From Catajapyx aquilonaris (taxonomy: Eukaryota): a stretch of DNA of 64,000 nucleotides. Of this stretch, positions 1,450 to 64,000 are shown piece after piece. Numbering within the stretch: position 1 is the stretch's first letter; each line of letters opens with the position of its first letter. The DNA lies in assembly GCA_000934665.2 (NCBI GenBank), contig KZ538094.1:62001-126000 (forward strand). Direction: 5' to 3'. Under the pieces are notes generated by a model, which saw only the letters and a list, made by a program, of their open reading frames with translations, was not told the origin of the DNA and made no database searches. A program made the translations under genes and the position numbers.

Positions 1450-1990
1450 GGTCAGTCAGGCTCAGTGAAGTGGGTGAGTTGACTGATTCCTATCTGAAGA
1501 GGCCCTTCTTCTGGAGGATGAACCTCAGTTCTGCTTCAGTCACCTCCCTTGCCCACTCTACAATTACGCCATTAGGACAACCAGTTATTATATTCATAAT
1601 TCGATTTTTTAACCTTATCGGGCACCGCATCCACCCAAAGTTTCGTGGGAAATGTGGCCACACAAGAATGTGTCCAATGACAAGGGGGGACTCCCTCCAA
1701 GTTTGACATCCCTCGATTTCTCACGTTCCTCGCTTGGGCTACTCGACTTATTCGTCGGCGTGACCTCTGCCCTCCGAAGTACCTGGACACCAGTGATTCT
1801 TCCCTGCAAGGAGAGTCAGAGACATAAAAAAGGAGAGAGAAGAGTGCCGGCTCCAACAATCCTGAGAAGGTGGGGGCCATTCATCAGGATAGTGCTGGGT
1901 GTGACCTCAGACCAAGGACACGGATTATTGCCCCGACCAAGGTAGATCCCCACCATGACAAGTGGAAATGGAGGTGATTCTCTGGCGCTT
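1450..1990 (-). mobile_element. 3' end of a decayed LINE ORF2 (I-group-like)
   Basis: Minus-strand remnants REESLVSRYFGG (cf. REEVVLTRLRIGH), GHILVW (cf. HILxxC) and terminal ELRFILQKKGLFR* (cf. FLxxxGL); boundaries approximate. Confidence 0.45.
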
Positions 1991-4900
1991 TCTCACTGCC
2001 ACTTTTGTCCAGGACCAGACCAAAAAAAATTAGAGAGGAGCATCCCACTAACACTTCTAATCAATCAATGGAATCGCTTTGGGCTATCGTCTCTGTCTTG
2101 ATTTTCCTATAACAATGATTGAAGTCACGGTTCTCATAAATCCACCAGTTCTTACTAGAGGCTTTGGGTGCACAGTGACACCTATACCGACTCTCCAAGT
2201 TGCATTTACATGCGAATCATTTCGAAGAGATCTGCAATAGGCTAGTTTTTTTTTGGCTGAAAAGCAATCGAGCATGTTTGTTTGCCTGTGTACAGTTCTT
2301 AGTTGGAGGAGCCTGCATTTTGCATGCACAAGTAGCGACTGGCTTGAGAGGCGATTTCCTGGGCTTACAGAAGAGAGTTTGAGGGGCATCATTCCGTTGT
2401 CTAAATCACTCGAAGCATCTGACTACATTTGCATACTGATCGTTCTTAAGTACAAGGCTCAGGATGTAATGTATAAGAGAGCGCCAGTGGACACGAAGAC
2501 CGAGAGGGGATTGAATAATCATAATAAAAAAAAGTTAATCGGATTGAGGGTGGACAAAAACCAAACGATCGGCGATTACTTAGCCTTAAGGCAGCTAAGT
2601 GATTATCGGTGAAAACGCCGTTCACATTAATTTCTTTGCCCATCAATATTCCGGCCATGATTAAGTCGTGGAATAACAAGGTGTGACAAGAGAATAAGTT
2701 ACCTATCAATAATGCGATGACATTTGTGGGAAGTACCATGTTCACCATATATGACACATCATGGAATATATGGTTGACGTCATTAATAATCCCATATACC
2801 TGCATGGTTGCAACACTATATTTGCAGAATTGCATTACATGCTTACATGTGAAGGGGGAAAATCTGTGCTAAATTGTGAGTAACGTTATAAATTTATAGT
2901 GATTGAACCTACGCCCTCTGTGTTACGAAATATGTCACAAAGCCACATTGCGTTTCGCCATTTATGAACATCGATTGCATCTATGCTGCTTTGGTATTAA
3001 TTGGATACAACGAAATGGTCTAGAAACAAGAAAAGTAGATACTCCCAGGGCAATTCTAAAGCGTGATAAGGCAGACTGGTTTCACAGACAATCTTTCCAG
3101 GTGACACTCGCAATAACATTACGTACAGTTACGTCACAATGAAATCGAAACAGTACAAATTGACACATCGGATCATTAGCAGAAAAAAGCTAAGTGCACT
3201 AAGCAAGAATCCGAAGATTGCATACCTCGTTGCTATCTGACTTGCACGCGCAACTAATTCCTTATAGAAACATGTCGATGGAACAGTACCTAAAAATAAA
3301 CTAAAAGCATGTAGCGTGCAAGAAAACAGTGCGCGCAGCATGCAACAAGAAAAATTCCGCTTTGCAATCATCAGTATGTCGTTTGGCGCACACCACTTCG
3401 ATTATGTTCTCCAACTACATTCCAACGACTGACTGGTCAGTCATTCCAAGCATGGCCCTGTATTTGCATACCAACTGGCCGCCTTCAAGTATAGGAGGCA
3501 CATTTCAAACGAGCTGTGGGACCATGTCAGTGTCATCCGGAAATCTTGGTATCCGATTGAATCCACGTTCACGTTGGTCCCATTATTTACTGTCAGGTAT
3601 ATATTCTGGCAAACTATAGCCGACACTCGACACATGCCTTTTCTATTATCTGGGTGTAGTGTAGGTTTTATCTTTGAAACCTATAGGTCGAGGATATGTA
3701 TCATAATTGTCACTTTATTTTTTGTGATCATATGCGGCATTGCATTATTTTGTCCTAGGTAGCTGCATTGGTCACATGCTGACTGTCTTTTCCAGGTAAC
3801 ATTCTCATATGCCACAACACGTGACTAAGCATTAGAAATTGCAGCTTCGAGTAGTGTAAAAAATACATACATATGTAAATAGCTTTTTTGAATGATTTCA
3901 GAGAATAATCCTTGGTCATAAAATCCAAAGCTCTTATCGCATACCGGTGAAAAGCTTCCTAATATGGCAATGACCTCCCCTTTCAGCTTGGTTTATACAG
4001 TATAAGGGTGCTTCTGACAGATTATAAATGCTTTTCACTTTCTATTGAACATCAATTTTATCTGGAATGTGAATGGCACGATAATATAGCTATCATAAAA
4101 TATTTGATTGCTTTCTGATAACTTCGTATTCTTGAAAACTACTTTATTGCTAGCCAAGGTTTAATAAAAACATTTATCACTTATTCACTTATTGCATCTG
4201 AGAGGAACTTTCTTTTGCATTCTTTTATTACAAAACGGGCCCAATCATTTGCCCTCAATTATTCTGGATGCATTTGCTCTCGTTCAGCCTTTCACTATTT
4301 TATCTTCGAAAGTCCTCTTTTTTTTGTCATATCAAACGGGAAAAATTATCTACATTGCAAAAGCTATCATTTGGAATTCCGATATTTCCGTGACTTGAGG
4401 CATCAAATGCGAAAGGAAAATCGTGATTGTCCGAGCAATACAGGCACAAGCTCTTTCTCTTTCCCGCTAACCTCTAACGGGACGAATTTATCTCTTGACA
4501 AAAGGAGCTTTTACGGCCCTCTTGTTCTACAGTTTTATCAGCCGCCTGTCACTCTTCAGCGTTTTGTTTTGTTCCATCTGATTGGCACACCGGCCCAAGA
4601 ACTTACGAATCTACAGAAATACAGACCAGCAGGTCTCACTGAGCTTATTGCTCCACCAAGTTCTATAGGATCTAGGTTAAGCATCGTACCGTTTCCACTG
4701 TCAAAGTGTCAAACCCAATCTCATCTTGCCCTTGGTGTCCCCTCTCAAGCAGCATATGGAAACCATGTGGAACGAATGGACAACCGATATGCTAATCAGA
4801 CTGGAAGCAGATCTGATTCCATATTAAACAAGGCGAATGGTTGCAGGCTTAGGTTGGGTCAGTTTTGTTGTGCAAGCTCCACACTTAGCCATCCTCATGT

Positions 4901-23000: not shown

Positions 23001-26000
23001 ACCTCCCCCCTATCCACCCATCAAAAGTGCACAAGTGCAGGCCATCAGCTGCAATCAAAATGGTCTTGTGTACTATAGCCCCCCCTAGTCCTAATCTGTA
23101 CACAAGCCCAAATGAACTTCAGAAGTGTCGGGGTGTCGTCGGTGTTGCATACCGACCAGGAGCGGGATTGTCCCTGCTAAGAGGTTGTTACTCTGATGTG
23201 GGAGTCGCTACCTCTCCGCATTCTTCTCCGTGTCCTCTCACCTATTCGCAACCCTCTTTTTGAGGTGAGTGACCGTCGGTCCTTAGTTCGATGCCAGGCA
23301 CGTACCATAGTAGCACCTATCGGCGACCTCCAGGCTCCCGTACGCGACTGGTCTGGCAATGACACTTCTTTTGCAGTCAAGTGGTTGCATGTATAGGTGA
23401 CTCGATTGTCCTTTGGTGTTTTTGCAGCCTTCTTTTTTTTCCCCTTGTGGCGGCAAGTCATAAAATGCGGTGACGCAGTTTAGTTGCCAATGAATATCGG
23501 TCTATCGGCCTGGTTGCGTTAGACGACCGACTAATCTTATTCAAATATGTGCCGGGTCTTTTCAGCTAATGAGGCGGATTTTAATAAGGTCGACTTCACG
23601 GAGATTTCCAAGTCTGATGGTGATATCATCTGCAATGTCATTGCATTTGAAGTTTTTAAAATGAAGTCATAGCTTTGGGTCGTGTGCACGCAGCAAAAAC
23701 GACTAGAAAAATAACCTATCGTGGGTGTTGCATACTAGGAACGTGATGTGTGGCTGCTTGCACCGATTGGCTATTTGGCAACTAAAGTTTAGGGTCGTCC
23801 ATAAAGTACTGTACATTTTGCTGAAAGGTTGTATGCAATACTACAGCTGTGGTCATCGAAAATACTGTATGGTGGCAATTTTAATAAACTATAACGTCCT
23901 TTCTCCAACCCCTAATTAGTTTCGCACGCTCACAAATATCACTTCTTTTCGGCGTCACTACCGAACTGCCATGAATGTCCAACAGTGAAATCCATGCCTG
24001 CCAACGCAAGTTCCGAACAAAGAAATCCTTGACAATTGAAGTCTATAGTAGGGTATATTAATGCAGCCTAATTAGGTCACGTAGGCTATGGGAAAAATTT
24101 CTAAGTTGGAATTCTGGGCACCATGGGGCCTTTTATCAAAGCAAATATCATTTATACTGTATAACTCTCATTCTGTATTACGGACACGTACCATCACAGC
24201 CAAAGATCCACTGCATGGCTCCAACAAGTCCACTCCGATGATGTCTTTGCTCCAAAGCGACTGTACGGTAGCACAGTCGAGATTATGACGTCCGCTACTG
24301 TATTCGCGTTGGAGTAGACATAACCGGTTATAAAAAAATTGTTGAAGTCTTGCAATACGGATAGTCATCCTTTAGGCGACAGTACCTGCGGGGCGTGTCG
24401 TTAACTATTCTCCGACAACACTACTCGCCCTCGCCACATGCCTCTAAATATGCCCCCCCCAAAAAACAACAGAAGNCCCCCCCCCCCCCCCAAAAAAAAC
24501 AACAGAAGAAATCCTTCCACATATACCAAGCAATGGACCATCCCACCGGTTTAGAAGGTACAAAAAAAAATCCAGTTATGGAAGCAAGTCCCCTCTTTCA
24601 AGGGCAACGGGGCTTCAAAAAGGGATGGAGATGGACCCATTTGCGTTTCCTTTTACGCCCTCTCCTTTGGTCCGCCCCGGTCCGGTCACGAACTTCTTTT
24701 TCAGGCCAAAACTAACCTTGTCGAGAGTCGGTACCATCAGCGGCCAGCGGACTCAGATGGTACTTGAAGGCGGCGACCTGCCTCTGGAGTGGTTGTGGTC
24801 CCGGAGCAGCCTCCACGTACAGTGCGGCATGTGCGTTCCGGGATCGGAAACACCGAGGAAGAAGTGGTGAGCGGCCATCTGCCCGGGAGAACAGGGGCAG
24901 AAGACGGGCCGGTTCCTCCAGGAACACTCGGGCACCAGCAAACCCAGCTTCGGCCTTCAGGCAACCCACGAAATCCCGGGGCGTAGGTCCAGACCCCAGG
25001 CGGAGAACAACCCGGAGGGCACCTCGGGGGTACAGCCACCGGACCGAACCCTGGCTGCACCGTACATACACTGGTTGGACACCACGACCTCCAGGACTTT
25101 CCAGGCCGCTGAAAAGAAACATTGGTCACATATAAGAAAGGCCATATTTTTTTTTACAGGTGTTAACCCCTATTGGTTGTCAAAGACAAATCATCTCATC
25201 GGCAAGGTCATCCCAGGTAACCCCCATTAGTGTGGAATTCTTATCAGGTGGATCCCCCATTTTTTGGGGGCCCCTGACCCACTTTAAGGGAATTAATATT
25301 TTTGAAAGGAACGATACCCCCCCTCCCGCGGTGTAATTTTTTCCGGTTCAGGTAGTTTCCGTGACGGGATCGCCCACTTCCACGATTCGGTTTTCGTGAA
25401 ACGTGAAAATCGCTCTCAGCTTTTTTTTCTTTCTTTCTAATTAGTGCACTGTAAAAGTGCGCTATAACTGTTCCACGCCTGCACCTACGCGGCCTTTATC
25501 AAGATGAGCTGGCAGGTGGTTCGCTCCTCAAGTGTTTACATGCAGTGTAGGAAGTTTTAAGGTCCCACTCAGGTCGTCCAAGTCGACACTTGACAACATT
25601 TCTGATAAGTGTCGTGTGTGGCTTCGACTGATAAAACCTGCCTTATCCTCACTTTAGGAATCGGTCACCTCATAAATTTAAAGAAAGGGAAAAAAATGCA
25701 ACAACTTTCGAAAATTGGGGTCCCGTTGACAAAAATTGGTCAAAGGTTTGCAGGTGAAAGTTTTTTGCCCCAGAATTCCTCGCGTCAAGTGTCAGATTTT
25801 CAAGGAATGTAGGAATACTGCACCTGCCGGTCTCGCCATAACCTGAACGTCAGAAATTTAAGCTAAAGTTGTGAAGTGCACAATTATTTCACATGCTACC
25901 AGGATCTGTCGAGTCTGTCCAAAACTAGCTTTGACAAAATGGGGCTTAACTTCATAATTTATGACGACGTTGGAAATTTCCAACGTCGTCATACATATTG

Positions 26001-55790: not shown

Positions 55791-57930
55791 TTATGGTACT
55801 GCCTTATCTTCACTCAGCGTTTCCTGACTAGGATGCGGCAGTAGCTGACGAGTAGAGCTGGTGGAACTGAAGCTGTCTCCACTAGATCGTTGGCTCCCTT
55901 GACTGGCTGCACTCTGCGGAGTGCCTGGAAGTGAGCCGCCTTCAGCTGTCAGAGTGGCTTTTGTGCTCATCTGCGTTGATCGAGGCTGGACCGGGACACT
56001 TCACATTAGAGACGTTAACAGGAGCTTGTAGTCACTGCCTTACCTTGCAACGATTAAGAGGTGCAGTGGTTGAGTTCAGAGCCTCTTCTGTTCCAGATCC
56101 ACCACCAGATTCCTCCATCACTGGAGTCATTGCATTTTCCTCTCTTGTTCCTGCACTTTCACCCTGATCATCATTGCTGCAAAGGGCTTCTGGAGATACA
56201 GACACTGATACAGAGCGATGTTCAGGTGAGCTGGCAGGTTGCTCAGAAGTAGATGTGGCTGCATCCAGGAGGGAATGCTCCTCTGCTTCCTCTGCATCAG
56301 CCTCATCTTGATTGTGGCATGGAACAGTCTCACTGATAAGGGTCACAGTGTCCCTCATAATAAACACACTCTTGTCTCGGCCACGTCTCCGTCCTGAGAT
56401 AGGTGGCAATGCTGCAGCAGTGGCACCTCCTTCATCACCACTTTCATGGCCTTCTTTTTCGTCTTCTTCTTGGGATACCATCACAGACATGCAAATCTCA
56501 GGAGTGGTACACCCCATGGCCCCAGCTGTGTTGTGCCCCTGTGCTGCCTCTTCTGACCCAGGTGATATAGTGCGGGGTGGAAATGGTCCAATGCTATTAA
56601 GTACCTCAGCAGCTCGAGCAGGCCCATCGCTGTTAGTTGGAGTTGAGGCATCCAAAGGTGCAGAAGGAATTGCGATAGTGTGAGTTGGGGCCAATGACTG
56701 AGGTTGAAAGGGGCCATTTAGTGCTTCAATCAGTGATATGGCCTCATATCCCACAGGAATGTTATCTGGCACGCCCTCAGGTGGTGGAATTCCCAGTGGC
56801 AGGCTCTGAATCTTCTGCAGGGCACGAACTTGTAGCAGGGCTCGAAAGGGAGCTCGGCATATGGGACAATTGTTAGCCTGCAAACGATGAAATTATTAAG
56901 TGTGCAAGTGACTGACAAGGCATGCACCCACCTGATAACGCAATGAATCTGCACATGAGTTGCACAGACATAAGTGGCGACATGGTAGAATAATCGTGTC
57001 ACGAACATCACACATACATATGACGCATTCGGAACCACTATCTTCTGTATCCTCATCATTAGCAGTCTTGGCAGCATCACTGTTCTTATTTTCAATTCCA
57101 TAAATTTCCTGCAGCAAATAGCAGAGGCCATCCACGAACAGTTTCTGCTTCAGAGCCTTGAGAACGTAGGTGCCATCAGAATGCTTCTCTACTACAGCAA
57201 TAGTAGTATGGGATTGATGGGGATCTAGTGAGAAAAGTAGATATAGTCACACTTGAGCTAAAATAATGCTGAAGATAATTTTAATTACCTTCTCCTTCTT
57301 CTGCCACACACTGAATGGCAATTGGAATTACTTCCTTCTCGGGATTGTAATTCACTTCTTCTTCTGTGTATTGACTTGGATCAAATGTGTGTGAAGACTG
57401 TGAGAACTGTTGATTAACCCCCTTCTTGTAATGATAAGTTTCTGAATTCATTGTGGGATCCCGGGGTATATACCTGCAATGTAACATGAGGTTTGACAAT
57501 GCCATGCCTAACTTTTAACTAATTTAAAACTCACGTGACTCCACTGGAAGTGACTTCCTCTGTGCAAAAGTAATAAACTGTGATGGCACAGTGACAGTCA
57601 CTGTCAAACACAAATTCAATGTTGAAACGTGTTGATTTATCCTCTTCATCCCCATGTCCAGACCCTGTGATGCAACATTTTCACAAGAGTTCAACTAATT
57701 CTCAGAATTTCACTCACATATTTTCCTGTAAACTTTCTATTCAAAATGAGCCAGTATTAATTAAACCTCACTCTCATTTTAGCTAGGTTCCACTCCCACA
57801 CAGATAACATAATGGCCTGTCTCAATCTCCCAAACTGGCATGTACGCACAAAAGAAGTAATTGGCAGCAAGGTAGATATTTGACACTGATCTGGTTAGTG
57901 AACAAGATATTGTAGACTGTTCTTAGTTAT

Positions 57931-58005
<75 letters not shown>

Positions 58006-61000
58006 GGGGTTAGTCCATCACCCATTGATGGGTCTCTGGCAAAGGTACCTTTATTTGCTTAGGTGTACAGCTAGTACATTTTTGGTCCTTTTCCATAACG
58101 CCCGGGTACCGCGAGCGATAGGGGATGACAGGAGGGGATGTGCAAAGTGCAAGTGCAATGTCGAAAGTGGTACATTTTGTGAACGCACCCGGGTGGATTT
58201 GTCAATCGGAGATTCCACCCGAGACGAAGCCAGAGATGACCGCTTAACTCAGAACAAGATGAAGGGGGGAACCCCGGGCTGGGATCAATCCCGGGACCTG
58301 AACATCCGTGGGCGCATACGTTACCACAGCGCCACTCTGCCTCCCTACCTTAGTTATTTACACCACTAAGTAGCACTTTTCCTGCAATTTTGCCTGGTAA
58401 AGACCATTTAGTCTAAAGATTCAGGCATGAGCCAGAAAGCATGTAAGCAAGTACAAGGTAAAATCTTTGCCTTCCATTATCTCGAAACTGGTTTATTTTA
58501 TTTTATTTTAGAACTAAGTGATTTTCACTTGTATGCCCAATGGCAGTCAGGATATTCCTTGGGCTAAAACAAGTCAAAAATGTAGGGGGGAGGAATGACG
58601 AGGGACCAATCAGTAATGAGGTAGATGACCAGAAACCAGAAAGGGGTAATCACTTCTATGAAAGAGGTGATCTCCCAAAATCCCAACAGTCATGATTATC
58701 ACACTCATATCCTGCTCCCTAGGCAACCACTGTAAGGCACACCAGTCCATCTGCCAGGAGATCTCCCTACAAAGAGGCATCGTGTGTTGCCGCATGTGTC
58801 TAGGGGTAGGCCAATGTTCACGGTCCTCTACCTTGTTACAGTTGGTCACTCGAAATTTCTCCTCCCTACATTTCAGACTTATTTTGGCCCAAGGAATATG
58901 CTCACTGCCGTTGGCCATACTAGTAAGAAACTCCATGCATTACATAAGTTTCATAGTCACAACTTGATGGTAATGTTGCAAAAAGGAGTAAGTCATTCCT
59001 GCTGAAATTGGTACTTAATAAGCCAAGTCTTGGGCAAGTGCCACATAGTAGCTACTCTCCCATTATGGTGAATATGTAATCAGCATCTATTACAATGTGC
59101 TGTCACAATCCAGAGATGAAAGCTGCAGTTATTTCCCCAACTGTGAGAGATGTCCAACAAGTCAAATCATTCTGACAACTGACACCTTGCAAACAATATG
59201 TTTTATCAGAATAACGATTCCATATGAGAAGGAACATTCCATTTTCAAGTCTGTGGCATATTGCAATCACATGTAATTTTCATAACACAGTGACACTGCA
59301 TGAGTTGGTTTCACCTATGATAACCAAAACAAATACTGCCTCATAACAATTTGGAAATTGATTTGAACTCTTCTTCCACTACAATCTATATTGTTCCATA
59401 TCATTAATGGTTCACTCACCATCTGAGATCTGGACATCAGAAGTTCTCACAAAGCGTAGGCTCTCCTTCCTAATATTGACCAAACTTTTTAATGTCTTCG
59501 TGGGTTCATTTGCCTGTGGCGCTGGATATGGAAACTACAAGTACAGAAAATTGAGTTATTAAAAGGGAGTATGATATAAAAATCTTGCCACAATCTACAC
59601 TCCTGTCAGACTGTCCTACTCACAGGTGTAGGACGACTCCCCAAAAAATTCAGGTCGGAGTTCTCGCCAAATAAATATGCCTCTGGTTGTGGGGTCTCAA
59701 ATCGCTCACCTCCCATGATGAAATGGCTGCTAAAGTAATTTCCTGTAAAAGACATTTAAAATATGAGCAATGGTATTTAAGGCTTTTAACCCTTCTTCTA
59801 ACATCACCATGACATATTCATAACACCATGACAAGCTAAAATTGGCTGCAGTCAGAGTTGATGGATCAAATGGCCATGGATGTAAGGTTTTTGCAGAATG
59901 TATATCAGAGTACATAAATACAACTTGGTGGTTATTAATGAGAAAGGTTGAAACATTTAACAAAAATATGAATATTGTTTCTTCTATTTCTGGAGCTGGA
60001 AGTTCCGGGCAATTCCAATCAAGTAGTACACTAATTATCATTATTCATATACTTTTCTCGAGCTGTGTGGCACAGTGGCAGTAACAAGCTGTTTGGAACA
60101 CCAACAATGTTTCCAAATGGGATTGGTTGGTGTTGGAACGGGTAACTTGCTTGCTTTGGAACACCAGTTGCCAAGGGAGACGCATCCTATGTGCACCACC
60201 GAATCGTTCACAATGACAGATCGATCAAATGTGAGAGCACAAATAATGATATATCAGCACAAGCTTGGAGCTTTGCAAAGCCACAATAACGTTTGTGGCC
60301 ACAAGGTGGTCAGTAATGTTGTGGATACAACCAACAATAAGCACCCAGCTCGCTACGCTCGCAATTACCTAAAATCATCGGGCAATGTGATGTACAATGC
60401 CTGCCAGAGCCACAAAACGGAATACTGGTTCGGTCACCCCAAAGCCATACAGATGACACCAATAAAACGGGCACACAACACAAAGTGACCACAGCAAATT
60501 GACGAAACAATTCACATTTTTGTTTTATGGTTCAACCTATTCATTTATAAACATCATGTTGTATGTACTCTGATATACACTCTGCAAAAACCATATGTCC
60601 ATACACGCTGTTTAGAATGTAGCCATTTGATCCAGCAACTCTGACCGCAGCCGATTTATGCAGCAACCAAAAGGCAGCAGCTAATTTGACCGCAGCGAAT
60701 TGACTCAGCAGCAAATTGATCCGCAGTCAGTCATCGGGAAAATAAAACTCATAAAAATGCGTTGTCATTACATTTGTGTAAGTCATTTCATGTTACAAAC
60801 ATGGATTTTTCTTGGCTAGATCACAAATATAATGTACTACTGTCAATTAACTATAGAAGGTGTATCAGGATTGCCACATTTGACAGTATGTCATGAGTAC
60901 ATATGCAAAGCATCTGCTTCCCTTGAAACCTTATTTTTGTTGCTTCTGGGCACTGGGCTTGGAAACCCACATTAAATTAACTGTTTAGTTCACCTCAAAT

Positions 61001-61390
61001 TTCACATACTGGCTTCCAGATTCAGGCCTGGTTGTACCTCTGTAGGTAGAGAGTTGACCATGAATTTCCACACACTAATGATTGACATGGATAAACCCTC
61101 GGTCAACACTACACCTGCTGTAGTGTAACTGAGGCTAAAACCACATACTCATCACACATTAATGAAAATATTCAGCATCGAACCATTAGTCCCTTTCCTT
61201 ATTAGGGCATGTAAGCTTCAAGCACCAACTCTCTCTGCCTCCAACTAAAACCAAACTTATTACATGTACCCATGCCATACTTTCAAAAGACCATATTCAT
61301 GCCTGTCTTTGGTGGGTATCGGTATGCATGTGTGGATCCGATGTCCACTTCCTCAACCCCTGCATTTTGCCTGCTTGTTAGGGCCCCCAT
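55791..61390 (-). CDS. MGRN1: E3 ubiquitin-protein ligase MGRN1/RNF157 family (Mahogunin), about 647 aa, 8 coding exons
   Basis: Exons (minus): 61390-61303, 59742-59624, 59534-59420, 57664-57535, 57473-57289, 57224-56932, 56877-56044, 55970-55791; 1944 nt, phases consistent. Protein starts MGALTSRQNAGVEEVDIGSTHAYRYPPKTGNYFSSHFIMGGERFETPQPEAYLFGENSDLNFLG and contains KTLKSLVNIRKESLRFV, LKQKLFVDGLCYLLQEIYGIENK, the C3HC4 RING [40 protein letters not shown], and a PSAP motif. Confidence 0.95.
57934..58348 (-). mobile_element. tRNA-derived SINE, head family B, tail type Y with long (ATT)n; in MGRN1 intron 3
   Basis: Minus strand reads GTGGCGCTGTGGTAACG...GGGATTGATCCC. The (AAT)n run at about 57933-58005 is its tail; 12-bp TSD CTTAGTTATTTA at 57922-57933 and 58349-58360. 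Confidence 0.85.
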
Positions 61391-61973
61391 TGCTGCTGTC
61401 CACACACAAACACACAGGGTGTGTTCGCCTTTTTCCTAGCAAACGCCACAGCTGTCACAGCACACGACGACACAAGTGCGATTAGGCGTGACAGGGCGTG
61501 ACGACACGTTAGGATCTCAAAGTTCCTGAATAATTAGGCCCCCGGCCTATCCGAGTAATTATTAATTAATTAAATTAAGAATCACCACAAGTGGGCACAC
61601 AAGTGCACTTCGGGGCAGGCCAAAGCGTAACCAAAATATGTTGAATTATCAAACCTAAGCGGAATTTCCGAACACACCTCACAGCCCCCCCCCCCTTTTT
61701 TTCAAGTTAATTAATAATTTAAACTCATGTGACATGGCGTGGCATATTTTATGTGTTAACAAGGCTGTTGGGAACTTATGTCGCCTAAATTTGGCTTAAA
61801 ACAGAGGCGCAATCATAAATCGATGATGCGGTTGTTGGCGGTAGAAGCGCCCCTAACGGTCAAATCCCCTTGATTAATTTCATTGAAGATTGGCTAGCGT
61901 TGTTCCATGGCCATTTGAGTTTGTTTCTTGGCTTGAACCTTCTTAATGTGTGCCACAAGATGCGCTGAGAGTC
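61391..61973. promoter_or_regulatory. Putative bidirectional promoter and 5' UTRs of MGRN1 and MED9
   Basis: Divergent start codons 583 nt apart; an imperfect DRE-like AATCGATG lies near 61818. Transcription start sites cannot be seen from sequence. Confidence 0.6.
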
Positions 61974-62737
61974 ATGGCCGCTGAGAAGACTTCGGTGGAG
62001 GATATCGACCTAGAATTTCTGCCACTCATATACGACATATTGCGAAAGTAAGTGGACAGAAATAGCACCTTGGGAAAGCATCCAGTAGAGGTGAACATTG
62101 GCTTATTCTTGACCATTTTGCAGCATAGAGAAGGATCCTTCGGATAATTCGCACAAGAACCGGGACTTCCTCGAGGCCAGCCAGAAGACATTGGAGCTGC
62201 AGAGGAAGTTGGAGCAGGCACGAGAGCAGGTATGTGCCAGTTTTGTTGGAATGATGAAATGGTTGCATGATATTGAGAGGGTTATCTGAAGGAGTGCAGT
62301 TCATACCTATGTTCTAAATGGCAGTGGATGATGCTTCGTAAGGGTATTGGTACTGCCTGACTAACATGTAGTGAGCACTGGTAAAATGGCACTGTATCAC
62401 ATCAGGGCAATCAAAATTGGTTAGTTCTACATTATCTTTGATCTATTACTGTGGATAACATGATTTGTGATGATGTTTTCCCTAATCGCACTAATGCAAG
62501 AGGGTGAGCAGCATTATTGCTTGTAATTAAGATATGACCTAGATGTTATAGTGCAGCCCTAGTCTGATTGGTGCATGTTGCTGATAATTACAGGTGCAAA
62601 AGCTGCCTGGGATTGAGTACAGCAGGGAGCGTCAGCTGAACAGGCTTGATAATTTGCGCAAGCAGCTGGTGGTGAAGCGAGAATTGCTGTTGAAGTACAA
62701 GAACATGTGCAGCTTTGCTCTCCCCAAGCCCAATTAG
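61974..62737 (+). CDS. MED9: Mediator of RNA polymerase II transcription subunit 9 (107 aa, 3 exons)
   Basis: Exons 61974-62047, 62124-62229, 62594-62737 with GTAAGT/CAG and GTATGT/CAG introns; 324 nt. Translation MAAEKTSVEDIDLEFLPLIYDILRNIEKDP...ELQRKLEQAREQVQKLPGIEYSRERQLNRLDNLRKQLVVKRELLLKYKNMC matches the Med9 pattern (FLPLIxDI; LPGIxxS-x-x-Q; KRELLxKY). Not in the ORF track because it is spliced. Confidence 0.92.
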
Positions 62738-62740
62738 AGG

Positions 62741-63001
62741 ATGGTTCTACGCTTTGTCTTGCGCTACTTGTTGAACAACGAGCAGCTGATTGAGCGATTG
62801 TCCCAGTCATACCCAATCAGACGAGCAGCGCAGTTGGTGTTCTACTTTTACTCTAAAGGACGATCTATTGGTGCTGAAGGAATCAGTAAGAGTGCTGAGG
62901 AAAGCAATAGACAGATACAGGACATAGCATCTCGCTTCAAGGAAGAGCTGAAGAAGGGTGTTCAGGAATTCCATGAGGAGATGAAAAAGAAGTCAAAGTA
63001 G
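62741..63001 (+). CDS. NCBP2AS2: NCBP2AS2-like microprotein (86 aa)
   Basis: Single ORF MVLRFVLRYLLNNEQLIERLSQSYPIRRAAQLVFYFY... The N-terminal LRxLxxxLxNNxQLxERLSxSxPIRRAAQL signature is recognised as the NCBP2AS2 family; ATG in strong context (AGGATGG). Confidence 0.85.
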   Translation: MVLRFVLRYLLNNEQLIERLSQSYPIRRAAQLVFYFYSKGRSIGAEGISKSAEESNRQIQDIASRFKEELKKGVQEFHEEMKKKSK

Positions 63002-63003
63002 AC

Positions 63004-63684
63004 ATGGTGGGTCGCAACTCAATGGCCGTGATTTTTGTGGGCGATGAGGGCTACTCTATGCTGGATAATCCAAGGCTGCGCAAATCATGGCGGGGGATTC
63101 TTCGTGCACTTCTCCATGTGCCGATGGAAGATGTTCCAGGCCGCCTTCTTCTCTCGCTGGCCCCACCCGTGGTGAGGCTACGTTTTAAGAAGATTCATGT
63201 TGACTTGGTGGGCCCAATGATAGTCCTCATGTTGCTCGCCACGGTCCTTGCCTTTGGCCAGCTCACTTCTGGGAAGTGCAGGTCTCCCGTGACTGCTTTC
63301 GGAGGGGCGATCATTGTGGGCACGTCCTACCTGACCATTGCTCCCACTGTTGCTTTCGCTGTCTGCAGGCTGTGTAAAACTGCAATCAATTTCCCTCAGC
63401 TCATCTCGCTCTTTGGATATGGCCTGTTTGGTCATGTGCTAAGTCTAGCGTTGGGGCTGGTGTTCCGAGGCGAGGATGACCATGGGTCATTTTTTCTGTT
63501 CATGACCATTTTTGGTGGAGCTGCCACTGCCAGACTGGCTCTTGTGCTCCTGGCTCGAACACCAAAACCAGCTGCCAGACTTCTTTTGTGTGCTTCTGTA
63601 GCAGTAGCACACCTTCTCTTTCTCCTCCATTTGTACATCTCATGTTTGAGACGGACGGTCCGCAAATCGACGATGGAGGAGTAA
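63004..63684 (+). CDS. YIPF3: Yip1-domain protein YIPF3-like (226 aa, intronless)
   Basis: Multi-pass hydrophobic ORF. Segments VPGRLLLSLAP, DLVGPMIVLMLLA, QLISLFGYGLFGHVL, GGAATARLALVLLART and RLLLCASVAVAHLLFLLHLY parallel recalled YIPF3 segments ([54 protein letters not shown]). Confidence 0.85.
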   Translation: MVGRNSMAVIFVGDEGYSMLDNPRLRKSWRGILRALLHVPMEDVPGRLLLSLAPPVVRLRFKKIHVDLVGPMIVLMLLATVLAFGQLTSGKCRSPVTAFGGAIIVGTSYLTIAPTVAFAVCRLCKTAINFPQLISLFGYGLFGHVLSLALGLVFRGEDDHGSFFLFMTIFGGAATARLALVLLARTPKPAARLLLCASVAVAHLLFLLHLYISCLRRTVRKSTMEE

Positions 63685-64000
63685 CCTAGTCATCTTCCTC
63701 ACTTTATTCGCCGGTGTTTTGCAATGGCGGTCTGTAACAATGTTGTCATTCAGCGTGATGTGAGGGTGTTCCAATATGGTAGCGGTTGAAGACCTGAGTT
63801 CCCAAATTTTCTGAAGTTCTCTTGTGCTTGTGATAAGATTACAGCAAAATTTCACCCAAACATCCCTGCACATAATACCTAACAGACATGCCTTGATATG
63901 GTTCATGAAAATGAATTGTACACAGGTTTCTGTAGAATATTCTGGAACTCATGCCTTCAACAGGTGTTTATAAGTGTTACTAGGAAAATAAGTGTTGCCA

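Follow-up and report, generated by a model that had tools for sequence, protein, structure and literature searches.

MED9, a small NCBP2AS2-family frame and a short YIPF3-family frame lie on one spliced transcript contig in Catajapyx aquilonaris

How could one animal gene give three unrelated proteins when there is hardly a nucleotide to spare between their reading frames? The question is raised by a locus of Catajapyx aquilonaris (GenBank assembly GCA_000934665.2, contig KZ538094.1, positions 62,001 to 126,000), a stretch of 64,000 nucleotides (nt) which is called the window here and numbered from its first letter. When the sequence was read together with a listing of ATG-to-stop frames under the standard code, three open reading frames (ORFs) were found in tandem on the plus strand at 61974-63684: MED9, a small NCBP2AS2-family frame (ORF2) and a YIPF3-family frame (ORF3). 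Between these cistrons there are spacers of 3 and 2 nt, though promoters might lie within the upstream coding sequence or in intron 2 of MED9. A spliced RNA spanning all three ORFs exists, at the level of an assembled contig. It is probable, in our judgement, that the locus is one polymerase II unit giving a spliced mRNA of at least 2.3 kb with three separate conserved frames; the downstream frames may be reached by scanning-dependent routes. The unit appears to extend the bicistron of MED9 and a small ORF annotated in Drosophila, and by sequence comparison it is common to at least two other species.

What is the evidence for the RNA? One public run (X1; 85,611 contigs, 31.8 million letters) was the only run with this stretch, and its contigs were aligned to 58001-64000. 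They cannot show where an RNA starts or ends, and the parts of 58001-61895 that they leave uncovered are uninformative. Record 5 of the run is 2,326 nt long and has 0 differing letters and 0 gaps against the window. Its matching blocks are 61896-62047, 62124-62226 and 62591-64000; the 76 nt between the first two (GT..AG) and the 364 nt between the last two (GT..AG, cut at +3) are left out. Its length is the sum of a 78-nt leader, 1,271 nt of frames and spacers, 316 nt of 3' part within the window and 661 nt of 3' part beyond it. Because both introns are precisely removed, this contig is taken to come from spliced RNA, and its continuity over both junctions places MED9, ORF2 and ORF3 together on one RNA, at the level of the assembly. 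The joints agree exactly with the MED9 exon borders read from the sequence, as listed below (all on the plus strand, including the 3' untranslated region, UTR).

61896..61973, plus: 5' leader as far as the X1 contig reaches, 78 nt (record 5 ends at 61896).
61907, 61946 and 61960, plus: upstream AUGs in the leader from the AUG listing, opening frames of 3, 12 and 2 codons.
61946..61984, plus: upstream ORF (uORF) of putative function, 12 codons and stop, out of frame over the MED9 start and ending 8 nt past the MED9 AUG (mRNA positions 51-89).
61974..62047, plus: MED9 coding exon 1, ATG at 61974, AUG context with G at -3 and G at +4.
62048..62123, plus: MED9 intron 1, 76 nt, GT..AG, absent from the X1 contig.
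62124..62229, plus: MED9 coding exon 2, Pfam Med9 E 0.015 over profile positions 14-41, with X1 joints.
62230..62593, plus: MED9 intron 2, 364 nt, GT..AG, absent from the X1 contig.
62594..62737, plus: MED9 coding exon 3, Pfam Med9 E 4e-10, stop TAG at 62735-62737.
62738..62740, plus: spacer 1, AGG, 3 nt; ORF2 shares the frame of MED9.
62741..63001, plus: ORF2, NCBP2AS2-family, 86 amino acids (aa), stop TAG at 62999-63001, AUG context with A at -3 and G at +4.
63002..63003, plus: spacer 2, AC, 2 nt; ORF3 is in the -1 frame relative to ORF2.
63004..63684, plus: ORF3, short YIPF3-family, 226 aa, stop TAA at 63682-63684, AUG context with G at -3 and G at +4.
63685..64000, plus: 3' UTR inside the window, 316 nt; the X1 contig goes 661 nt past the window end.

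Joined, the three MED9 exons make a 107-codon frame without an internal stop. Neither AATAAA nor ATTAAA occurs in the spliced sequence 61896-64000, so a transcript from the MED9 promoter meets no canonical stop site before the end of ORF3. Such transcripts would be unable to end between the frames and would carry all three, as is shown at contig level by X1.

Do the three frames encode real proteins, and which? Exon 3 of MED9 alone scores 40.1 bits against Pfam PF07544 (cut-off 26.9), and the nearest named protein is a Limulus 'mediator ... subunit 9-like' with 78 % identity over exon 3. MED9 is a subunit of the middle module of Mediator and is essential. For ORF2 no Pfam family was matched. 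However, all 11 of its candidate homologues lie at E<=1e-3, and the core S-Y-x-I-R-R-A-A-Q, in which x is almost always P, is invariant in 12 of 12 aligned sequences. This core sits within a conserved MVLR...QLIERLS block, and the frame has what defines the family, an N-terminal block of the form MVLR...QL[IV]ERLS[EQ]S[YR]PIRRAAQL in a protein of about 80-100 aa. The protein Atlas puts ORF2 beside two clusters, one of arthropods (0.92) and one of chordates that bears the name 'protein NCBP2AS2' (0.91; 206/256 features in common). There is a human small ORF (sORF) of 99 aa that we take to be NCBP2AS2 itself. It carries the ORF2-type block, as given in the appendix of PMC11351124, and the vertebrate NCBP2-AS2 is described as a mitochondrial microprotein in the preprint 10.1101/2025.01.25.634884.

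By exhaustive HMMER search, 93 proteins are related to ORF3 at E<=1e-3. Those with names include the 'protein YIPF3-like' of Cephus, Panulirus and Schistocerca (229-232 aa), the 'Protein YIPF3' of Ignelater, and the YIPF3 of Octopus and of reptiles (344-379 aa); in the Atlas the frame falls to a cluster 'protein YIPF3-like' (0.95). With a snake YIPF3 of 344 aa it shares 35 % identity over 183 aa (BLASTP, E 5e-26). Canonical YIPF3 has about 340-380 aa in total. Since the alignment begins at residue 122 of the snake protein, ORF3 corresponds to the membrane domain, and the long cytoplasmic part at the N-terminus of canonical YIPF3 (Pfam YIPF3_N) is absent. With 226 aa it is close in size to the 'YIPF3-like' proteins of Cephus, Panulirus and Schistocerca. 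Yip1-family proteins have five membrane spans, and five Kyte-Doolittle peaks >=1.6 are seen in ORF3, at residues 66-84, 103-121, 136-154, 165-183 and 194-212. The frame is below the gathering score of Pfam Yip1 (PF04893), with 18.6 versus 28.6 bits (E 0.0018). This cut-off is reached by one of the 25 ORF3 relatives scanned, and because the other 24 are below it as well, the profile seems to cover this subfamily poorly. In a maximum-likelihood tree of 50 rows, ORF3 of the window falls in one group of 23 rows with its close relative, with the distant locus L001 introduced below and with short hexapod proteins, apart from the long YIPF3 proteins of molluscs and vertebrates; the group has moderate support (89/98), and the tree contains several long branches.

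The original prediction for this locus, made from the letters alone, is thus borne out to the base in its ORF coordinates, stops and AGG and AC spacers. The three names it gave hold as well, by PF07544 for MED9, by the core and the Atlas neighbour at 0.91 for ORF2 and by the BLASTP match to YIPF3 for ORF3, and its expectation that MED9 mRNA runs into the downstream frames agrees with the spliced X1 contig, at contig level.

Is the arrangement peculiar to this species? In a close relative, homologues of all three frames were found, each on a contig of 1,945 nt: MED9 (P0013, 108 aa), ORF2 (P0002, 87 aa) and ORF3 (P0001, 226 aa). The 108-aa MED9 frame is uninterrupted, which argues that it is spliced. 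The identities to the window are 86/108 columns for MED9 (80 %), 66/87 for ORF2 (76 %) and 195/226 for ORF3 (86 %, gapless). As 86 % compares with 80 %, ORF3 seems to be at least as constrained as MED9, and this conservation argues for purifying selection on ORF3. The 1,945-nt case apart, no other YIPF3-like, ORF2 or MED9 homologues were found on contigs of equal size. JGI metagenome contigs were then scanned with the ORF2 alignment; there were 66 pattern matches, 31 of them confirmed, at 30 loci that were checked by tblastn and hidden Markov models (HMMs). The MED9 HMM matches three of the 30 loci (L001, L003 and L009) and the YIPF3-like HMM one (L001). Many of the other loci are uninformative: L011-L030 match a stretch of 24-45 residues of ORF2 only, and L002 has just 65 nt upstream. 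At L004-L008 a longer ORF2 relative adjoins other genes.

The three matching loci each bear on the question. L001 (1,390 nt) has MED9 at 23-343 (106 aa, uninterrupted), ORF2 at 363-614 and a YIPF3-like frame at 626-1276, with spacers of 19 and 11 nt, and its ORF3 protein is also present on a separate contig of 1,414 nt. It would belong to a distant species, because its ORF3 is only 36 % identical to that of the window. At L003, MED9 and ORF2 are 25 nt apart and are followed by a convergent GTPase gene, with no third cistron. L009 is genomic DNA: its final MED9 exon runs to 1498, and ORF2, which has an intron, starts 11 nt on at 1511 and stops at 2063-2065. The same order thus recurs in other species, and by this comparison the ORF arrangement appears to be more than chance.

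The pair has also been annotated in the fly. The fly gene CG42518 is presumably the NCBP2AS2 homologue. MED9/CG42518 stands in the FlyBase list as dicistronic, with 28 nt from stop to start and a span of about 1.15 kb (PMC4528330, supplementary file 2), and in a table of P-elements one insertion is named as an allele of both MED9 and CG42518 (PMC4978919). A Vespula vulgaris prediction (P0039, 176 aa) fuses MED9 to an NCBP2AS2-like exon and is best read as a gene caller bridging two adjacent genes. The ORF2 homologue of Strigamia maritima (P0003, 145 aa) has a tail of ~50 aa without a match in the alignment, which may be a similar annotation error from a polycistronic locus. The MED9-NCBP2AS2 pair appears, from these sequences, to be widespread in arthropods, and the trio appears to be present in at least two far-apart lineages. 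The fly dicistron mentioned in the original prediction is in the FlyBase list, but the suggestion that this species extended it fails: the trio is also in the close relative and in the distant L001, so that the three-gene unit would be much older than this species. Neither the three-gene form with a YIPF3-like cistron nor the pair is the subject of any paper in the collection searched, and in the FlyBase list, as far as that is searchable, MED9 appears only as a pair.

Then how would ribosomes reach ORF2 and ORF3? MED9 would be translated by ordinary cap-dependent scanning. For the two downstream frames, one route would be leaky scanning past the upstream AUGs, possibly aided by the leader uORF which overlaps the MED9 AUG. 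The other would be re-initiation, in which ribosomes resume after terminating beside the next AUG. With low confidence, a scanning-dependent combination of the two on the tricistronic mRNA may be taken as the most likely route. Note that few AUGs stand in the way. Between the starts of MED9 and ORF2 there is one AUG, at 62705, in frame and with 10 codons; between the starts of ORF2 and ORF3 there are two, at 62973 (3 codons) and at 62981 (in frame, 6 codons). All three intervening frames are <=10 codons and are closed at or before the next start, and the non-start AUGs number 3 in the 587 nt upstream of ORF3 versus 17 in the 678 nt of ORF3. Such few and short AUG frames would let scanning ribosomes reach the downstream starts. 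As for the leaders of other loci, L001 has two short uORFs (AUGs at 6 and 16) that overlap the MED9 start, and L003 has none in 98 nt.

For the second route, a known model is termination-reinitiation by a termination upstream ribosome-binding site (TURBS), at the stop-start junctions of caliciviruses and influenza B, where motif 1, UGGGA, lies tens of nt upstream of the restart. The window is like these systems in having stop and start within a few nt (3 and 2, and 0 nt at L009). It is unlike them in that UGGGA is not conserved and that spacer length ranges from 0 to 28 nt between species. The window has a single UGGGA, at 62608, which is 133 nt before the start of ORF2, and L003 has one too; L001 and L009 lack it, and none precedes ORF3. 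The motif thus precedes ORF2 in two of four sequences and at unlike distances, which is not the TURBS pattern. RNA structure gives no further hint: an Rfam scan of both strands of 61500-64000 yields 0 matches at E<=1, and the folds at the junctions are unremarkable (z -0.29, +0.42, +1.71 and -1.43). The RNA ahead of ORF2 is no more stably folded than shuffled sequences (z +1.71), which is compatible with scanning.

Several observations weigh against a tricistronic mRNA read by scanning. On the side of the RNA, an assembled contig across genes is no proof of a single molecule, and the kind of run X1 is not on record as RNA, its cDNA nature being deduced from the removed introns. On the side of comparison, that P0013, P0002 and P0001 share one contig is deduced solely from the equal 1,945 nt, and L001 might be intron-less genomic DNA rather than cDNA. 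On the side of translation, the AUGs of MED9 and ORF2 are in strong context, with a purine at -3 and G at +4. The depletion of out-of-frame AUGs is not significant against synonymous-codon shuffles that keep amino acids and codon usage fixed (pooled, 13 observed versus a null mean of 15.2, P 0.21; per ORF, P from 0.11 to 1.0). L001 shows no contrast of the kind seen in the window, with 7 non-start AUGs in the 600 nt upstream of its ORF3 versus 9 in the 648 nt of ORF3. Finally, shorter isoforms are plausible here because FlyBase records an alternative monocistronic transcript of CG42518.

This last point leads to the explanation that best survives beside the tricistronic one, though it is rather unlikely. 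The tricistronic RNA would exist, but ORF2 and ORF3 would come mainly from shorter isoforms. These would begin within MED9 intron 2 or exon 3, or would be splice variants which destroy the MED9 frame, and each downstream frame would thereby come to lie 5'-proximal. The fly gives it a precedent: MED9 is annotated as 'di/polycistronic only', while for CG42518 FlyBase adds an 'alternative monocistronic transcript (3')', which arises from a splice variant with a disrupted 5' coding sequence, and only 45 of the 159 fly dicistronic loci appear exclusively dicistronic for both genes (PMC4528330, with supplementary file 2). The strong Kozak contexts of the upstream AUGs, which make downstream access on the long mRNA inefficient, also speak for it. 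In addition, X1 has low-depth contigs in intron 2 (bin depths 3.2 and 1.23, versus 24.6 for the spliced contig), which may be unspliced precursor or internal starts. However, X1 reported just the two canonical joints in MED9, and a gap of 2 nt has no room for an ORF3 promoter outside coding sequence. Moreover, the contigs of the close relative (1,945 nt) and of L001 (1,390 and 1,414 nt) are of full three-gene size.

What other genes can take the third place, or partner the small ORF? In the lineage of the window and in L001 the third gene is YIPF3-like, at 2 and 11 nt. In L009 (region 1496-3250) the ORF2 stop TGA (2063-2065) directly abuts an ATG at 2066, a spacer of 0 nt; 11 codons are followed by a GT donor at 2100, and an AG acceptor at 2470-2471 leads, with the phase kept, to a frame of 262 codons with a match to Pfam PIG-L (E 4.4e-21). 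PIG-L is the N-acetylglucosaminylphosphatidylinositol (GlcNAc-PI) de-N-acetylase. Since the 262-codon frame has no Met before the catalytic region, the 11-codon exon is the likely start of PIG-L. If this gene model, read from the sequence, is right, the L009 species would have PIG-L where the window has the YIPF3-like gene. At L002 (2,207 nt; span 66-1926) an NCBP2AS2-like ORF at 66-320, close to the 5' end, is followed 64 nt later by an ORF of 513 aa that contains a HIT zinc finger (Pfam E 5.1e-08). Here the small protein may have a further bicistronic partner, with no MED9 in the 65 nt upstream. One may speculate that the MED9-NCBP2AS2 unit is an ancient arthropod 'landing pad', which would repeatedly take unrelated endomembrane genes as a third cistron with abutting stop and start. 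The downstream frames would then be translated by a termination-coupled restart needing neither a weak upstream AUG nor a TURBS. We regard this as a doubtful proposal. If true, a cellular animal mRNA would in this unrecognised way give rise to full-size proteins from its third cistron, a five-pass membrane protein among them.

The tricistronic unit with separate products also has to be weighed against fusion proteins, which would arise by readthrough of the MED9 UAG into ORF2 or by a -1 frameshift near the end of ORF2 into ORF3. The frames do allow this. In the spliced sequence the starts of MED9 and ORF2 are 327 nt apart, a multiple of 3, and those of ORF2 and ORF3 are 263 nt apart, which gives the -1 frame; traced back from its AUG, the ORF3 frame stays open for 27 nt (from 62977), with G-AAA-AAG at 62983-62989. 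But the frame relation of MED9 and ORF2 is not kept, the corresponding distances being 340 in L001 and 343 in L003 (both 1 mod 3) and the fly spacer being 28 nt. The heptamer is not a canonical X-XXY-YYZ, and after it there is no stable structure (z -0.29) and no Rfam match. ORF2 and ORF3 are each open with their own conserved Met in good context, and their homologues start at the same Met. Fusion is therefore very improbable.

Still less credit can be given to an operon of the nematode type, in which the precursor would be cut, polyadenylated and trans-spliced with a spliced leader (SL) into monocistronic mRNAs. A general analogy of same-strand clustering may suggest it, but spacers of 3 and 2 nt are too small for a 3'-end signal plus a trans-splice acceptor, the spliced 61896-64000 has no polyadenylation hexamer of either kind, and a mature intron-free X1 contig crosses both junctions. 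Equally improbable is that ORF3, or ORF2, is an untranslated relic in the MED9 3' UTR, as ORF3 is better conserved in the close relative than MED9 is (86 % and gapless, versus 80 %), is homologous to YIPF3 proteins as a full-length frame with five hydrophobic segments and is kept in L001 at 36 % identity, and as the ORF2 core is invariant in all 12 aligned sequences.

Some features around the locus should be mentioned. Upstream of MED9 there is a RING-finger gene on the minus strand at 56032-57246 (Pfam zf-C3HC4_3 E 2.3e-10 at 56899-57246). A spliced X1 contig joins 59624-59741 to 61302-61395, so that the RING-finger gene may start no more than about 500 nt from the MED9 leader, in divergent orientation, and possibly shares a promoter region of that size with MED9. 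At 58083-58400 the X1 word depth is up to 2,208 on short mismatched contigs, and this is probably a repeated or transposon-derived expressed element. Far from the locus, at about 24,400-24,480, translations contain X, so that the window has at least one N.

How does the tricistronic unit compare with systems already known? Polymerase II polycistrons are known in Drosophila, silkworm and green algae, and the pair of MED9 and a small ORF is known from FlyBase. To our knowledge, few polycistronic mRNAs are conserved over long distances, and few have a full-size multi-pass membrane protein as the third product. As in FlyBase-type polycistronic loci, the window has at least two non-overlapping conserved ORFs on the same strand and, at contig level, a spliced transcript with all ORFs, the ORFs being for unrelated proteins on one arthropod polymerase II mRNA. 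FlyBase release 6.04 has 159 dicistronic, 7 tricistronic and 2 tetracistronic loci (PMC4528330), and beside such loci the spacers of the window are at the extreme short end. The closest likeness is to MED9-CG42518 of Drosophila melanogaster, in which MED9 is also the 5' cistron with the small ORF close behind on the same transcript, an order also found in L001, L003 and L009; the fly locus has two cistrons 28 nt apart, whereas the window has three, 3 and 2 nt apart (PMC4528330).

The silkworm uENF1-uENF2-PP mRNA is likewise a cellular insect mRNA with three ORFs. All three are translated, an internal ribosome entry site (IRES) was excluded, and context-dependent leaky scanning was supported (PMC2978622). 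Its products are related cytokine precursors and its mechanism was tested by mutation (PMC2978622), whereas the predicted products of the window are unrelated and its upstream contexts are strong. Green algae have genes whose nuclear transcripts are exclusively polycistronic, and few AUGs come ahead of the downstream ORF in them (PMC7896298, PMC11291117). There, ORF 1 has a weak Kozak-like context and start codons are significantly depleted; in the window the contexts are strong and the depletion is not significant. The strong upstream contexts of the window are thus the opposite of what is reported for the algal bicistrons (PMC11291117) and for the silkworm tricistron (PMC2978622). What stands out here are the near-zero spacers, the strong upstream start contexts and the conservation across distant arthropods.

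Why, then, does such a locus matter? For annotation, gene callers that assume one protein per mRNA drop or fuse downstream genes, as the 176-aa Vespula prediction exemplifies. For translation, strong upstream contexts should be the least favourable setting for simple leaky scanning, and the locus offers a compact natural test case of how animal ribosomes reach downstream cistrons.

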